IMG/VR virus record: IMGVR_UViG_3300021088_000001
Coordinates: 1-64,000 of that record
Reading direction: 5' to 3' (one strand)
Source of the DNA: a virus
Length of the DNA stretch: 64,000 bases
Under the pieces are notes generated by a model. It had not been told where the DNA came from and ran no database searches. It was given only the letters and a program-made list of their open reading frames with translations. A program made the position numbers and the translations under genes. Below, piece after piece: positions 4,816 through 57,246 of this stretch (positions are counted from its first letter, which is position 1; each line of letters begins with the position of its first letter).

Positions 4816-5178
4816 ATGGCTGGACCGGGGCGACCAAGATTGACGGCTGTTGTGCAGCCTGTGTTTATCAAGAAGAAGCACGAACTTGATAAAGTGCTTA
4901 AGGCTATTGAGAAAGGTAGTGTTGACGCAGTAGAACTCCTTGTGAATACAATGAACAGTGAAGTGGAGGATGAATCTCAAAAAGGGTTCATTCCTCTTAC
5001 AAGGAGACTAGAGTGCGCCCAAGCATTGCTTAATCTGCAAGTTAAAGTGGCGGATGTTATTTCTAGAGATCAGTTTGCAAGGCAGATTGCTGAAGTGAAA
5101 GTTAAAGGTTTGCCTAATAACCTAGAGATTAGTGAGAAGAGAGCTAGGATTAATTTCACTGAGATACAGGATGTGTAG
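4816..5178 (+). CDS. putative terminase small subunit
   Basis: N-terminal GPGRP, helical, 120 aa, upstream of terL; RBS TAAGGAGG. Confidence 0.6.
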   Translation: MAGPGRPRLTAVVQPVFIKKKHELDKVLKAIEKGSVDAVELLVNTMNSEVEDESQKGFIPLTRRLECAQALLNLQVKVADVISRDQFARQIAEVKVKGLPNNLEISEKRARINFTEIQDV

Positions 5179-5181
5179 GGG

Positions 5182-5210
5182 TTGACAAATAAGAGTTTGT
5201 GTGTAATAAT
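5182..5210 (+). promoter_or_regulatory. sigma70-like promoter for the RNA-rich transcript
   Basis: TTGACA-17-AATAAT directly after the terS stop. Confidence 0.6.
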
Positions 5211-5216
5211 GTAGAT

Positions 5217-5287
5217 ACTATGTAATGCTTGGCACTCGGTAGCATGCAGTGTGCCCCTTAGCCGAAAAGTGGGCACTGCACATAGTA
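5217..5287 (+). ncRNA. putative three-way-junction RNA with complementary loops
   Basis: Closing helix TACTATGT/ACATAGTA; hairpins ATGCT/AGCAT and GCAGTG..GCCC/GGGCACTGC; loops contain TCGGT and GCCGA. Confidence 0.45.
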
Positions 5288-5361
5288 CTTATAAGAATTG
5301 AAGTAGTAACAACCGTGGGTGTGCAACACGTTGGGGCAGCACACATCTGAACGAGGACTAA

Positions 5362-5406
5362 CACGGCTGATGAAGCCAAAAGGCAGAAACCCGAAAGGGT
5401 TCCGTG
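5362..5406 (+). ncRNA. hammerhead ribozyme candidate (type I topology)
   Basis: CACGG-CTGATGA-a-GCC(AAAA)GGC-a-GAAA-CCC(GAAA)GGG-TT-CCGTG; predicted cut after GUU (5401/5402); extra A on each side of stem II is non-canonical. Confidence 0.6.
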
Positions 5407-5481
5407 GAGTGATCCTACCTCGTGAATAACTGATCACCTCCCGGAACGTTGCTGATAGGTAAGCTATCAACTTATAATAAA

Positions 5482-5556
5482 GCAGTCTTAGCTCAATGGT
5501 GGAGCGAGTGTTTTCCAAACACAAGGACGTGATATCGGTAATCACAGGCTGCTCCA
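5482..5556 (+). tRNA. atypical tRNA-Gly(TCC)
   Basis: Acceptor GCAGTCT/AGGCTGC, U73, encoded CCA, D-arm GCTC/GAGC, anticodon loop TTTCCAA; T-loop ATCGGTA is non-canonical. Confidence 0.65.
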
Positions 5557-5562
5557 AAGTCA

Positions 5563-5650
5563 TGCAAGTTGGCAGAGTGAATTATTGCAAAGGCTGATCC
5601 CCGGAGGCTATTGACATAGCCCGCAGGTTTGAATCCTGCACTTGCGTACA
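5563..5650 (+). pseudogene. degenerate class II (Ser/Leu-like) tRNA-like element
   Basis: Acceptor TGCAAGT/ACTTGCG, D-arm TGGCAGAGTG..TTGC, variable stem GGCTAT/ATAGCC, T-arm GCAGG-TTTGAAT-CCTGC; anticodon stem broken; 3' end ACA. Confidence 0.6.
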
Positions 5651-5681
5651 AAAATTATTAATTTTACCAAAGGAAAACAAT

Positions 5682-5900
5682 ATGATTGATCAAGCACAAT
5701 TAGACGCAGATAAGCAAGCCCTCCAAGATGCAACAGTGAAGCTGGCATCCGACCAAGCAGCATATGATGCAGCACAGCCTCATCTGACAGTGTGGCAAGA
5801 AGTAGAAGCACATGCAGTGAAATGGGGTGGAGAAGCTGAAGCAGAGTTGAAAGTTCTCGTGGCAAAAGGCCGTGAGCTTGTTGCGAAGATGTTTGCATAA
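5682..5900 (+). CDS. small Ala-rich helical hypothetical protein
   Basis: RBS AAGGA; 72 aa. Confidence 0.7.
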   Translation: MIDQAQLDADKQALQDATVKLASDQAAYDAAQPHLTVWQEVEAHAVKWGGEAEAELKVLVAKGRELVAKMFA

Positions 5901-5916
5901 AGAATTTTTGTCCGTT

Positions 5917-6373
5917 CACTAGGTTCAGTTTTCTTGGCGGATTTCTTCCCTAGTGTCAAATCGCTACAAGTATTCGGATAGGTGTAGCGCTCAAGTTAGC
6001 ACGGGAATCGGCGTACCTGAAGAGGGACCAGCAGCTAATTAAATACTTAAAGATTTGCATCTTTCCACAGACGGCTATCGTTCACGAGTGGTTACATGCA
6101 AGAGATAGGTCCACTACTACCTAGACCAGAAAGTAGAAATTTCAGTGCAAAGCTGAAATAGCAGAAACCCTTTAGAACTTAGTGTGTCGTGGGTGTGTTT
6201 CTGCATAAGACGGAGAGGGCAAGCAGCAAGGCTTGTCGGCATAGAGCATCGGTTGGCTGGCGACTATGCATGCTGAGTAGGTAAATCATAAGATAATTCG
6301 TATGGGCAATTACGGAGTAATTAATTCTGTACTAAGCATAATGTAAGTATGCGAATCTTGTGGACTGCTCAGC
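5917..6373 (+). ncRNA. array of consecutive stem-loops (putative structured RNA or RNAs)
   Basis: No ORF of 60 aa or more; helices CACTAGG/CCTAGTG, CGCTACA/TGTAGCG, ATTTCAG/CTGAAAT, GCAGAAAC/GTTTCTGC, GGCAAGC/GCTTGTC, GCATAG/CTATGC, GCTGAGTAG/CTGCTCAGC. Confidence 0.45.
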
Positions 6374-6385
6374 CTCTATTATGTG

Positions 6386-6420
6386 GCCCCGTATTCTATG
6401 AATACGGGGCTTTGTTGTTT
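6386..6420 (+). terminator. intrinsic terminator
   Basis: GCCCCGTATTC-tat-GAATACGGGGC followed by TTTGTTGTTT. Confidence 0.8.
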
Positions 6421-6437
6421 ATATCACGGAAAATAAT

Positions 6438-7868
6438 ATGGCAGAAGAAAAACAAGTAGTGCTAGGGCCATGTAGCCTTAAGCAACAGATGGCATTATTG
6501 GACAGGAGCGATATTCTTATAGTTGGTGGTGCAGCCGGGGCATCTAAATCCTATATGGCACTTTTAAAGGCATTAGACCACTGTTCCGATCCTGCAGCAC
6601 GTGTATTAATTGTCAGACGTTCATACCCAACACTTAAAGTAGTCGGTGGGCTTGTGGACGAATCAAAGAATATGTACAAACAATTTGGTGCAGTGTTTAA
6701 TTCTCAGCAATTGGAGTGGCGTTGGCCTAATGGTGCAGTAATAAAATTTATGGCAATGCCAGACGACTTGTCAGAATTACAAGGGGCTGCTGCAACCTTA
6801 ATTATCTGCGATGAAGGTACGGAACTTTCTGTCGAAGGTATTCTCATGTTAAAATCTCGCCTTCGTGGAGCAAGATTCAAAGGTGTGATGCAATTAGTTA
6901 TAACATGTAATCCAGATCGTCAGAGCTATTTATATGATTGGGTCAAATACTCACTAGACGAAGAAACAGGGATTCCTAAGTCTGGCACTGAGAAAATATT
7001 ACGATGGTTTGTTGTATTGAACAATAAAATATATTGGGCGAACTCTAAAGAGGAACTCTATAAAGAGCATGGAATGGGTTATACAGAGGGAGTAGATTTT
7101 ATTCCTAGCTCTCTAAGATTTATTGCAATGAATATTTACGATAACCCTGTTCTGATGAAGAATAATCCGGGGTATCTTGCAAATCTTTTATCAATGTCTA
7201 GAGTGAACCAGCAGCGATTTCTGAAAGGTTCTTGGACAGCAGTTATTGAAGGTAATAGTGTATTCAACAGATCTTGGGTACAATTTGTTGACAACCCTCC
7301 AGTTAATCCTACTTCCAAGGTCAGGTCGTGGGACTTGGCGTACAGCGTGCCTTCTGAGTCATACCCTAATCCCGATTGGACAGTAGGGGTATTAGTATCA
7401 AGAGATAGGTTTGGCACATATTGTATTGAAGATGTGAAGAGGTTCAGGAAGCTTACAGATGGTGTTGTCAAGGAGATAATCAAGACCTCTATTGATGATG
7501 GACAAGATATTCCAGTCACTATCCCAAAAGATAATGGTGGTGGTAAAGCTGCTTCTTCTATTTTCCTGCGCATGTTTGGAGAGGCTGGAATAAATGTGCG
7601 AGGAATTCCTATTACTAACCACAGCAGTAAAATGCAGAGATTCTTGCCATTTTGTACATATGCAGAATCTGGATCACTTACAATGGTTAAAGCCGATTGG
7701 AATGACGACTTTTTAACAGAGTTAGAGTATTTCTGTGGAAGTAGAAATCAGAAGGATGACCAAGTTGATGCTGTAGCAGATGCGTTCATAACATTGTCTA
7801 GGCAGGTTAATACTCCTGTCATAGCCCCTCCCTCAATGACCAAACCAAACCCTGTTCCCTCCATTTAG
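6438..7868 (+). CDS. terL: terminase large subunit
   Basis: Walker A GGAAGASKS, Walker B IICDE, coupling motif TCNP, nuclease WDLA and KDDQVDA. Confidence 0.95.
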   Translation: MAEEKQVVLGPCSLKQQMALLDRSDILIVGGAAGASKSYMALLKALDHCSDPAARVLIVRRSYPTLKVVGGLVDESKNMYKQFGAVFNSQQLEWRWPNGAVIKFMAMPDDLSELQGAAATLIICDEGTELSVEGILMLKSRLRGARFKGVMQLVITCNPDRQSYLYDWVKYSLDEETGIPKSGTEKILRWFVVLNNKIYWANSKEELYKEHGMGYTEGVDFIPSSLRFIAMNIYDNPVLMKNNPGYLANLLSMSRVNQQRFLKGSWTAVIEGNSVFNRSWVQFVDNPPVNPTSKVRSWDLAYSVPSESYPNPDWTVGVLVSRDRFGTYCIEDVKRFRKLTDGVVKEIIKTSIDDGQDIPVTIPKDNGGGKAASSIFLRMFGEAGINVRGIPITNHSSKMQRFLPFCTYAESGSLTMVKADWNDDFLTELEYFCGSRNQKDDQVDAVADAFITLSRQVNTPVIAPPSMTKPNPVPSI

Positions 7869-7955: not shown

Positions 7956-8585
7956 ATGGCAGTTGTCTACTGGATACATTTAGCAGAACATACTGACATG
8001 TTCACGCAAGGATATATTGGAGTTAGTAAGAATACGGCTAAAGATAGGTTTAAGGTTCATAAACATCTTGCCACAAGCGGAAAAGGTATTTATGTAATAA
8101 ATAACGCTATTAGAAAATATGGCGACAGTATAAAACTCCAAACTTTAGTTGTGGCAGATTTGCAGTATTGCTACGATTTAGAAAGAAAGCTCCGTCCTGA
8201 GATAAATATCGGATGGAATATTGCTAGAGGCGGTGAGCAGCCTCCAATGACTGGCAGGAAACATTCAGATTACACTCGAAAAAAGATGAGTGACAGTTCT
8301 CACAGAATAAGAAAACCGCATTCAGAAGAGTTTAAAAATAGAATAAGAATTGCTAACAGTGGAAAGAAACCTTGGCAAAACTGTAAAGCTAGAAAACACA
8401 TCTGGTTAAAAGCTGCAGAAATAGCTGTGCTAGTCAGACAAAATCCTAAGTGGAGTTACAAAAGGCTCGACAAGATATTTAATGGCTCTACAGGCAGGGT
8501 CATAGATATGGCAAGAGCAGGTTGGTGGCCTGAAAAAGATCCCGCTTGGGTGGAATTTAAAACTGATGCGGAGAAAAGTTTATGA
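7956..8585 (+). CDS. free-standing GIY-YIG homing endonuclease with NUMOD3 repeats
   Basis: VVYWI...GYIG, R...H, E, GWN...GG; GRKHSDYTRKKMS and HSEEFKNRI repeats. Confidence 0.85.
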   Translation: MAVVYWIHLAEHTDMFTQGYIGVSKNTAKDRFKVHKHLATSGKGIYVINNAIRKYGDSIKLQTLVVADLQYCYDLERKLRPEINIGWNIARGGEQPPMTGRKHSDYTRKKMSDSSHRIRKPHSEEFKNRIRIANSGKKPWQNCKARKHIWLKAAEIAVLVRQNPKWSYKRLDKIFNGSTGRVIDMARAGWWPEKDPAWVEFKTDAEKSL

Positions 8586-55519: not shown

Positions 55520-55972
55520 CTAGTAATAGAAAAGATGACGCCCAACTCTCTTGCAAAATTTCAAATGCCACTTAGGATGAACATATACAGCATGAAAGCT
55601 GCTACATCCCTCCACAACAGGCTCCATATTAATCAACATTTCTAACTCTGTCAACTGTTCAATTGTAACACGAAGCTTTGTGTGTTTAGTGAACCCGCTA
55701 AATTGAAAGGGTTCCTTTAGCACTTGGCATGCTGTCATATTTCTTTGTCTCATGCGTGTTAGAATTACGTCGATTATTGCTCTTTTGCCCTTCACAGGTT
55801 CTCCTCCTGCTTCAGATTTCACAGTCCAAGCAATGCATATTGCATCTTCGGACATCGGTAGCCCACCCTCCACAATTCCTTGTGGAAATGTAATAATTTC
55901 TGGCAGGCTTTCTGAAGCTAGGCAAATTGATGCTAGTGACAATAGGAAGCCTATCAGAAGGTTTTTAATCAT
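55520..55972 (-). CDS. cell wall hydrolase (SleB/Hydrolase_2-like) with signal peptide
   Basis: C.A..V..EA.GE...G..A..V..R, QFS, FH...V.P.W, G.H.FY. Confidence 0.82.
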   Translation of the reverse strand: MIKNLLIGFLLSLASICLASESLPEIITFPQGIVEGGLPMSEDAICIAWTVKSEAGGEPVKGKRAIIDVILTRMRQRNMTACQVLKEPFQFSGFTKHTKLRVTIEQLTELEMLINMEPVVEGCSSFHAVYVHPKWHLKFCKRVGRHLFYY

Positions 55973-57246
55973 GCAGCATCTTCTCGGTCTAGACTTTCGC
56001 AAATTCCTTCCATCACTTTGAAGAAATAACTCTTACTCTTCAGAAAATATGGAGTGTGCTTGCCAGTATCAATCCGCAGGATAACTCCCTCACTAGGATG
56101 ACTACCATCAATCACATCATCTCCAAGCGTCTCAGAACGCTCTGTGAGGCCATCAACAAGCTTCTGCAAGCTCTCTGTATCACCGTCATAAACAATAGCA
56201 GGATGCACCTCTACAGGCCCTAGAATCTGCCTATCAGCGCACCATTGATCAAGCTGCTTCTGTGTGAAGTCTATATTAACACCATTCACATCTGCCTGAG
56301 TGATACGGTATACATGGAAGCGGTATTCATGCTCTTTGCAGCCATATTTGTAGATAATACTCTCTCCATATTTCTTCTGGAAAGCTTTATCTTTTGTAGC
56401 CTTAGCAGAGTGAACAGCCATAATTGGCTTACCATTAGCATAGCCTGCAATCTCACCATAGACTGTCATACCATTTACCATATGTGGTTTCAGCATCTCG
56501 GCTACATCAAAGCGAAATTGCTCACTTCCGTGAAATCCATCTTTCTTCTCTGTTAGCACTGTGTTGCGTGTACCAACAACATGTGTGTACTCTGTGTTAG
56601 GAAATACATTTGCAAACTTATTCACAACCTGCTTCCACTTAGGTAGTTCTATATTTGTCAGTGTCAATCCTGAGCGATGACTTGTACCATGAACTTTAGC
56701 ATGGAAGTGAATCAAAGCACCTTTAGGAATCAATCCTACATTGTGCTTGAATTGATCACTATCTACATGCTTAGCAAACAATGGTGTCACAGACACTTTA
56801 GCTTGCTTAGGACGATTTTGTCGCGCAATACTATCTCGTGTTGCTTGGCTAATGTATTTGCAGCAGATTGGAAACTCATTCACTGTGTCAAATGTCTCTC
56901 CAAGAGTTCGATAACCATCACGTCCTGTATAGAACAAGCTAGACAATGGTGCAAAATACCCTTGGCTCTTCACCTTCAAGAATGGCTGCACTCGTACACG
57001 CCGATTCTCGTCAAAGAATCCAGATTTTGTTGTATCAGAATTCAATTCACTCCGACGAAAAAGATTATTCTGTTTGCAATACTCTTCAGAGAGTTGTGTA
57101 TCTGCGGGGAAGAACACACCAATGTATCCTACTCCTGTGTCTTTGCTAACGATAACATTCTCACCAAGCACAACAGCTACGTGAATCTTGTCTGCTCCCG
57201 GAATAGGAGTGACAGAAGTGATTGCTGCAATAATTGCTTTACTCAT
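55969..57246 (-). CDS. ATP-dependent RNA ligase with N-terminal OB-fold (DRB0094/Rnl2-like)
   Basis: PIPGADKI, motif I KVHGTS, YGEI.G, EGV.LR, K.KS..F. Confidence 0.85.
   Translation of the reverse strand: MSKAIIAAITSVTPIPGADKIHVAVVLGENVIVSKDTGVGYIGVFFPADTQLSEEYCKQNNLFRRSELNSDTTKSGFFDENRRVRVQPFLKVKSQGYFAPLSSLFYTGRDGYRTLGETFDTVNEFPICCKYISQATRDSIARQNRPKQAKVSVTPLFAKHVDSDQFKHNVGLIPKGALIHFHAKVHGTSHRSGLTLTNIELPKWKQVVNKFANVFPNTEYTHVVGTRNTVLTEKKDGFHGSEQFRFDVAEMLKPHMVNGMTVYGEIAGYANGKPIMAVHSAKATKDKAFQKKYGESIIYKYGCKEHEYRFHVYRITQADVNGVNIDFTQKQLDQWCADRQILGPVEVHPAIVYDGDTESLQKLVDGLTERSETLGDDVIDGSHPSEGVILRIDTGKHTPYFLKSKSYFFKVMEGICESLDREDAA

Follow-up and report, generated by a model that had tools for sequence, protein, structure and literature searches.

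The question raised by this locus is whether a hammerhead-like sequence in a noncoding block of a phage genome is a genuine self-cleaving ribozyme and, if so, which RNA it acts on. The source record comprises 77,271 bp with direct terminal repeats; its bases 1-64000 are the 64-kb stretch analysed here, referred to as the window, and the only public sequencing run with this stretch is a soil-metagenome DNA run, which may be its source. A sequence-only reading had placed a hammerhead core within a structured element of ~190 nt (5289-5477), and had proposed that its self-cleavage processes a polycistronic RNA with tRNA-like genes downstream.

The element belongs to a noncoding block of 1.26 kb that is flanked by a 120-aa ORF (4816-5178) and by the large terminase gene, terL (6438-7868), and this block contains a promoter-like site, two tRNA-like sequences and a terminator-like hairpin (Table 1). 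The anticodon of the tRNA-Gly was assigned by inspection, and ARAGORN calls neither this sequence nor the class II element as a tRNA. The terminator-like hairpin lies only 27 nt ahead of the terL start codon, and no promoter-like site is found on the + strand between the two. Elsewhere in the block, nhmmer detects a weak resemblance (E 1e-4 to 6e-3) between 6132-6316 and the DNA immediately upstream of terL in four related loci (L036, L037, L046 and L009); this part may represent a distinct conserved leader of the terminase gene. A homing-endonuclease-like gene (NUMOD3; phrog_314) occupies 7956-8585, between terL and the Mu-type portal gene. The phage itself has distant relatives: the closest isolate terminases are 39% identical, and terL relatives reach up to 70% in contigs. 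No match to 5150-6450 is found by blastn in 50,697 phage records, nor any match to an exact 31-mer of the hammerhead in viral contigs. In the viral contigs with 52-64% identical terminases, the terS-terL junction is compact and carries neither the 5180-6100 insert nor a hammerhead. As these terL relatives (at most 64% identical, upstream DNA read) do without it, the insert is dispensable in this phage lineage.

Table 1. Features of the noncoding block, in window coordinates.
Feature	Position	Strand	Basis or remark
Sigma-70-like promoter, TTGACA-17-AATAAT with TG	5182-5210	+	11/12 consensus matches only; putative start ~5217
Double-pseudoknot phage RNA, ~105 nt, with hammerhead in helix Ib loop	5311-5456	+	Models R1 and R2
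5' copy of (C)CGUGGG motif	5313-5319	+	Can pair with stem Ia 5' strand CACGG
Helix X hairpin GUGUGC/GCACAC	5319-5344 (strands 5319-5324/5339-5344)	+	5/5 pairs double compensatory; 100% of cells paired
Pseudoknot strand PK2a, in helix X loop	5328-5336	+	
Helix Ib 5' strand ACGAGG, prolonging hammerhead stem I outwards	5351-5356	+	6/6 pairs covary; 100% paired
Type I hammerhead ribozyme	5362-5406	+	Sequence, fold, covariation, cores of relatives
Hammerhead stem Ia	5362-5366/5402-5406	+	5 bp, open end
Hammerhead core CUGAUGA (C3-U4-G5-A6-N7-G8-A9), between stems I and II	5367-5373	+	
Hammerhead stem II, 3 bp, AAAA loop	5375-5377/5382-5384	+	Flanked by unpaired A5374 and A5385
Hammerhead GAAA (G12-A14, then A15.1)	5386-5389	+	
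Hammerhead stem III, 3 bp, GAAA loop	5390-5392/5397-5399	+	Closed by A5389-U5400 (A15.1-U16.1)
H17, U5401, non-G	Predicted cleavage U5401/C5402	+	
Pseudoknot PK1 5' strand GUGAUC	5409-5414	+	Pairs with 5432-5437; 4/6 double changes; 96.9% paired
Helix Ib 3' strand CCUCGU	5418-5423	+	Covariation
Motif GAAUAACUG (5424-5432), overlapping PK1 3' strand GAUCAC (5432-5437)	5424-5437	+	In all family alignments
Pseudoknot PK2 3' strand CCCGGAACGU	5440-5449	+	Pairs with 5328-5336: 5 + 3 bp, 2-nt bulge
tRNA-Gly(UCC), T-loop AUCGGUA (atypical), encoded CCA	5482-5553	+	Rfam tRNA, 47.6 bits
Class II tRNA-like element, sub-threshold	5563-5647	+	Rfam tRNA, 26.4 bits vs cut-off 29
Intrinsic-terminator-like hairpin, 12-bp stem and T run	6385-6411	+	Closes the noncoding block before terL

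Every core element that had been recognised at 5362-5406 is indeed present and in the correct order (CACGG / CUGAUGA / A-GCC-AAAA-GGC-A / GAAA / CCC-GAAA-GGG / U / U / CCGUG). Stems II and III are closed and stem I is open, which is the topology of a type I hammerhead, and the cleavage predicted at 5401/5402 would fall at the position expected of one. The minimum-energy fold of 5351-5423 is the three-way junction, with a z of -2.76. The sequence departs from the usual form at positions 10.1 and 11.1, where A5374 and A5385 stand in place of a Watson-Crick pair (usually G-C). Its loop II is AAAA; in relatives this loop is mostly GNRA-like. An internal loop follows the first 5 bp of stem I. The Rfam search that the sequence-only reading had proposed as a check did not bring out the element: no hammerhead model reaches its gathering threshold there, and the best, Hammerhead_HH9 (RF02275), gives 20.4 bits vs a gathering score of 52, with an E-value of 0.047 in a 1.4-kb search, or ~2 when scaled to the whole window. 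Nine relatives searched in the same way also yield no hammerhead match at E <= 0.1. Rfam by itself is thus inconclusive, and it is comparison that settles the verdict.

How often such an arrangement arises by chance was estimated with a descriptor consisting of CUGANGA, a stem II of at least 3 bp with one 10.1/11.1 mismatch allowed, GAAA, an A-U pair plus a stem III of at least 3 bp, a non-G H17 and a stem I of at least 4 bp. In 300 dinucleotide shuffles the expectation is 0.013 matches per 64-kb window, or 0.003 with a stem I of at least 5 bp, and 556 kb of related-phage loci contain none. The window holds a second match (55962-56047, minus strand), in which CUGAAGA is accompanied by a 5-bp AU/GU stem II that has a long loop, by GAAA and by a stem III of 3 bp, stem I being UUUU/AAAA. 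This match falls in the 3' end of a 425-aa ORF (55969-57246, minus strand), and since its stems are weak and the region is coding, it is probably a chance match. This ORF has a marginal match to PF21189 (PHA02142 OB-fold, RNA-ligase-like).

The RNA that surrounds the hammerhead was recognised through its relatives. The covariance model R1, built from 16 hammerhead-bearing relatives in viral contigs with the window left out, matches 5311-5460 over all of its 149 positions (93.6 bits, E 4.1e-29), the next best match having 6 bits. In its structure string the stem Ia 3' strand is one column off, which leaves the score valid for homology, and the pair counts given below were made on the R1 alignment with the string corrected. 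The second model, R2, built from 39 relatives that possess no hammerhead, matches 5311-5456, again over its full length (model positions 1-104 of 104; 44.7 bits, E 5.8e-11), and in this alignment the hammerhead appears as a 59-nt loop insertion that replaces 16 loop positions. Because a model made only from hammerhead-less sequences matches the window from end to end, the host of the hammerhead is, on this comparison, a ~105-nt double-pseudoknot RNA, and the hammerhead is an optional insert in one of its loops. The 77-kb genome contains a single copy.

The structure of this host RNA is supported by covariation in the R1 alignment, where 96% of 780 cells are paired and 28 of 33 pairs show double changes, values that none of 500 shuffles equals; when partners are slid, ~38% of cells remain paired. 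All seven helices covary (X, Ib, stems Ia, II and III, PK1 and PK2), and A15.1-U16.1 is AU in 27/27 aligned relatives. Two of the interactions noticed in the sequence alone hold up: the enclosing helix ACGAGG/CCTCGT (5351-5356/5418-5423) is conserved with every pair covarying, and the proposed GTGATC/GATCAC pseudoknot (5409-5414/5432-5437) is the conserved and covarying PK1. The window copy has a perfect helix X, helix Ib and PK1, and none of its six helix Ib pairs is that of the family consensus CCCGGC/GCCGGG. Its PK2 is weaker than in relatives, where 6-8 contiguous bp are formed and 7/7 pairs covary, and it shares 2 nt with the window-specific helix AGUAAC/GUUGCU. The 5289-5477 element is not upheld as the unit, the conserved one being 5311-5456; its outer helices AGTAAC/GTTGCT and TTATAAG/CTTATAA can be read in the sequence, as described, yet lie beyond the conserved family, since the models match 5311-5456/5460 only. 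The family motifs follow in the window in the order CGUGGG (5314-5319), CAUCUG (5344-5349), CGYGGAG (5403-5409) and GAAUAACUG (5424-5432), of which CGUGGG is fixed by the search patterns, so that its constancy is by design, and the invariance of GAAUAACUG, also demanded by the patterns, is partly so.

Relatives were collected by pattern scans of different stringency. The first, of viral contigs, used the stem II of the window (CTGATGA-A-GCC-N3-8-GGC-A-GAAAC), and it retrieves 29 contigs with complete type I and type III hammerheads whose stems I and III differ. An A..A flank is thus a form that recurs in nature; type III hammerheads from other phages have the same A-GCC-N4-GGC-A stem II. When the pattern is extended by the downstream motif GAATARCTG, the scan yields 14 distinct sequences with the entire architecture of the window element. 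Two further scans used motifs of the host RNA only. With a short spacer (CGTGGG...CATCT...GAATAACTG), ~48 distinct hammerhead-less members with the same helices and pseudoknots are obtained, in which the hammerhead site is occupied by a 2-6 nt loop or a plain hairpin. With a long spacer, which makes the scan blind to the sequence of the insert, at least 117 stretches are found, 71 of them distinct and ~66 of these true members.

Among the matches listed, 62 of the ~66 true long inserts contain intact hammerhead cores, distributed as CUGAUGA (35), CUGACGA (19), CUGAAGA (6) and UUGAUAA (2), so that position 7 is free to vary (U 35, C 19, A 6). The UUGAUAA cores carry the compensatory change of C3-G8 to U3-A8 that is known from Perreault 2011 (PMC3088659). 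As a rule, stem Ia comprises 4-6 bp in the relatives and stem II 2-5 bp, the loop of the latter being often GNRA. At positions 10.1/11.1, 30 of the 62 members among the matches listed have G..C, 15 have A..A and 9 have U..U, and the unpaired A on either side of stem II, noted as a deviation in the sequence-only reading, is thus real and recurs in relatives; in sequence terms, it documents A10.1-A11.1 as a recurrent natural hammerhead variant. With stems Ia, II and III covarying around intact cores, the conservation on which that reading had staked its claim is found, and this comparison indicates that 5362-5406 is a genuine hammerhead under selection.

The family is not restricted to metagenomic contigs. 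A blastn search with a hammerhead-less member as query, its matches confirmed with both R1 and R2, finds the knotted RNA in three named phage groups. Microcystis phage Mwe-JY26 carries it without a hammerhead in the middle of a tRNA array. In Mycobacterium phage Gaia the RNA begins at the 3' end of a tRNA-Ser and contains a hammerhead with a UUGAUAA core and an A..A flank. Arthrobacter phages Constance and Karkharias also carry the RNA, and in Constance, the one inspected, the hammerhead has a CUGACGA core and a canonical G-C at 10.1/11.1, near the genome end and upstream of an HNH endonuclease. Gaia and Constance, although found with a query that lacks the ribozyme, thus hold hammerheads at the same site. 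The RNA is unannotated in the GenBank records of Gaia, Constance and Mwe-JY26. The 'hypothetical protein' gp68 of Constance (1461-1571 of locus L232) overlaps the start of the knotted RNA (1499-1656), and is probably a miscalled ORF. One viral contig (L161) has a tandem pair of hammerhead-less copies (234-341 and 346-449), 4 nt apart.

In bacterial assemblies (a 596-Gb collection), 13 of 80 loci among the matches listed are true members, and the remaining loci of those 80 were set aside as chance pattern matches. These true members come from, among others, the isolates Burkholderia anthina LMG 20980 and Asticcacaulis endophyticus KCTC 32296 as well as metagenome-assembled genomes labelled as Acidobacteriota, Spirochaetes, Chloroflexi, Actinomycetota, Clostridium, Bdellovibrionales and Alphaproteobacteria. 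Members of the host RNA family span assemblies labelled with at least 7 bacterial phyla, and the pattern-limited scans alone give more than 110 distinct sequences. The genes next to ten relatives vary (DNA methyltransferase, HNH endonuclease, unknowns), and a constant protein partner of the RNA was accordingly rejected.

The hammerhead of the window shares its core, junction, topology and NUH site with bacterial, prophage and phage type I hammerheads (Rfam clan CL00010: RF00163, RF02275 and relatives), and also their phage context with inconstant neighbour genes. Short stems II, 10.1/11.1 mismatches and the C3-G8 to U3-A8 covariation are documented for that class (Perreault et al. 2011, PMC3088659). 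Hammerheads have been reported in association with Mu-like phage genes (PMC10085705), and the phage of the window has a Mu-type portal. The window hammerhead differs from known type I hammerheads in lying below every Rfam hammerhead threshold, in carrying A-A at 10.1/11.1 and not U-U or a Watson-Crick pair, in taking as its stem I 3' strand a conserved motif of the host RNA, and in occupying, as a whole, a loop of a double-pseudoknot RNA of which members without the ribozyme also exist. The pseudoknot-stabilised hammerheads (Perreault et al. 2011) resemble it in having a covarying periphery and a pseudoknot in contact with the stem I region; however, their pseudoknot links loop I or stem I to loop II or to the tail of stem II, whereas PK1 of the window links the internal loop of stem I, on its 3' side, to a segment past helix Ib. 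PK1 is equally present in hammerhead-less members, which makes it a part of the host RNA.

At E up to 10, no family of Rfam 15 matches the host RNA. Folds of the HDV-like, twister, pistol and hatchet kinds were rejected for it, there being no Rfam match at E <= 10 and its helix order (X hairpin, loop paired to the 3' end, then Ib/PK1) being unlike HDV P1-P4. In 2024, Kienbeck and colleagues reportedly described HDV-like theta ribozymes adjoining tRNAs in gut phages; these are likewise self-cleaving ribozymes in a phage tRNA neighbourhood, but their class and fold differ, and the window element has no Rfam match to the HDV family. RNA species 1 and 2 of phage T4 (rnaC/rnaD) are also small stable RNAs among phage tRNA genes; they were discarded as homologues, as R2 finds no match in T4 68000-74000 at E up to 10.

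The two copies of CGUGG in the host RNA follow a rule of their own. The base 5' of each copy (5313 and 5402 in the window) is the same in 130 of 133 distinct members (C/C 65, G/G 54, U/U 11), where 56 would be expected and none of 10,000 permutations does as well; the rule holds in 48/48 hammerhead-less members, and positions -2 and -3 show nothing of the kind. Since this base is identical, the 5' strand of stem Ia can always pair with either copy. The alternative helix, between the upstream copy and that strand, has one covarying pair (GC 15, CG 5, UA 1), and is contained in the minimum-energy fold of 5289-5477. In hammerhead-less members, the loop base directly before the internal motif is complementary to the shared base. 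When the two CGUGG motifs are matched with one another, with the CCN joiner or with the 3' tail, no pairing is consistent across members, and there is one complementary column only. The competition for stem I by a second CCGTG (5313-5317) that had been suggested is therefore borne out as a conserved pairing with the 5' strand, by a copy that is the CGUGGG motif of the family, and the pairing is read here as a long-range contact native to the host RNA, one that the 5' strand of the hammerhead could join after cleavage.

The model that best accounts for these observations, with a probability of about three in four, proposes that the terminal loop of helix Ib holds a genuine type I hammerhead, which nicks the conserved double-pseudoknot RNA around it. 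The block would be transcribed from the promoter-like site together with tRNA-Gly(UCC), and the hammerhead would borrow the conserved CCGUG of the host RNA as the 3' strand of its stem I. The predicted cut would leave a 2',3'-cyclic phosphate on U5401 and a 5'-OH on C5402, the base directly ahead of the conserved CGUGGAG motif. From the sequence we infer cleavage, the order of folding and the holding together of the pieces: the product would be a knotted RNA in two pieces, nicked but still open to being held together by helix Ib and PK2, and the freed CACGG could then re-pair with the identical upstream CCGUG, which would disfavour religation and restore the fold of the hammerhead-less relatives.

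A variant of this model, compatible with it and not exclusive, is that the ribozyme is conformationally gated, the upstream CCGUG sequestering the stem I 5' strand until a signal (a ligand, a protein or the completion of PK1/PK2) frees it. The alternative pairing in the minimum-energy fold, its conservation with one covarying position and the 130/133 identity would all agree with such a switch. The copies are, however, just as identical in all 48 hammerhead-less members, so that the constraint does not exist for the sake of the hammerhead, and neither a ligand-pocket signature nor a match to a known riboswitch in Rfam is seen. Gating is for these reasons regarded as doubtful, though it fares better than the alternatives that follow.

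The tRNA neighbourhood suggests another role, the one that the sequence-only reading had assigned, in which the hammerhead separates a leader from the tRNA genes as proposed for theta ribozymes. The tRNA-Gly begins 26 nt downstream of the knotted RNA and 76 nt past the predicted cut, and among the matches listed a same-strand tRNA lies within 300 nt in 37 of 114 distinct members (L106, L129, L156, Gaia and Mwe-JY26 being examples), vs 13% at random positions of the same loci. This adjacency nevertheless follows the host RNA, as it is found in 24/48 hammerhead-less vs 13/66 hammerhead-bearing members among the matches listed, and tRNAs are as frequent upstream of the family members as downstream (25 vs 24). 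Furthermore, the cut would lie inside a conserved structured RNA and not at a tRNA end, and RNase P and RNase Z would still be required. Adjacency to tRNAs is thus a property of the host RNA and not of its optional insert, which makes dedicated tRNA processing by the hammerhead unlikely; the claim that this is the purpose of the ribozyme is not upheld, and its action would instead be on the host RNA.

It is still less probable that the hammerhead is kept as a structural arm, the window copy being catalytically dead or very slow on account of its A-A and short stem II. The 10.1-11.1 pair is the most conserved of stem II and mismatches there reduce activity, U-U being the best tolerated (Perreault 2011, PMC3088659), and some members have a plain hairpin at the same site. 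Given that ranking of mismatches, A-A may slow cutting, and with its 3-bp stem II and weaker PK2 the window copy may be slower than its relatives. Against a dead arm, the catalytic positions are all intact in the window and stay intact across relatives while the stems change, the double change of C3-G8 to U3-A8 is only sensible under selection for an active core, and the A..A flank recurs both in the family (15/62 among the matches listed) and in unrelated type III hammerheads.

That the motif is a chance resemblance in intergenic DNA, as the sub-threshold Rfam score and the window-scale E-value of ~2 might suggest, is refuted by the family evidence (the R1 and R2 matches, the covariation and the 62/~66 intact cores among the matches listed), together with the low descriptor expectation and the absence of matches in related phage DNA.

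The ribozyme in the helix Ib loop belongs to a known class, and what is uncatalogued is the composite, in which a hammerhead sits inside a widespread double-pseudoknot phage RNA and takes one of its own strands from it. A literature search, whose incomplete coverage is not proof of novelty, found no hammerhead nested in a conserved pseudoknotted phage RNA or tied to phage tRNA arrays; the host RNA was likewise not found in it, which is not proof of its being undescribed. Absent from Rfam 15, and unannotated in GenBank or lying under a small 'hypothetical protein' ORF, the host RNA is missed by annotation pipelines. As a tentative suggestion, held with less confidence than self-nicking itself, the host RNA could be a new functional class of phage RNA, either a catalyst or a binder or decoy for a host factor acting on tRNAs. 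The hammerhead would then be its built-in maturation device, yielding a two-piece RNA with CGUGGAG near a free 5'-OH, and the same-base rule would reflect a shared recognition or pairing step. If this is true, in hammerhead-less members the same bond would either stay intact or be cut by another route.

Since 2011 it has been asked why phages and prophages carry hammerheads. In the present case the address of the ribozyme is fixed: it occupies one loop of a structured RNA that is widespread, with the predicted cut just before a conserved motif, which gives the question a concrete substrate and product for study. Natural controls are provided by members in which the same RNA has no ribozyme, or has a plain hairpin at the site, and culturable systems are at hand in Mycobacterium phage Gaia on M. 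smegmatis, in Arthrobacter phage Constance, and in the prophage carriers Burkholderia anthina and Asticcacaulis endophyticus.
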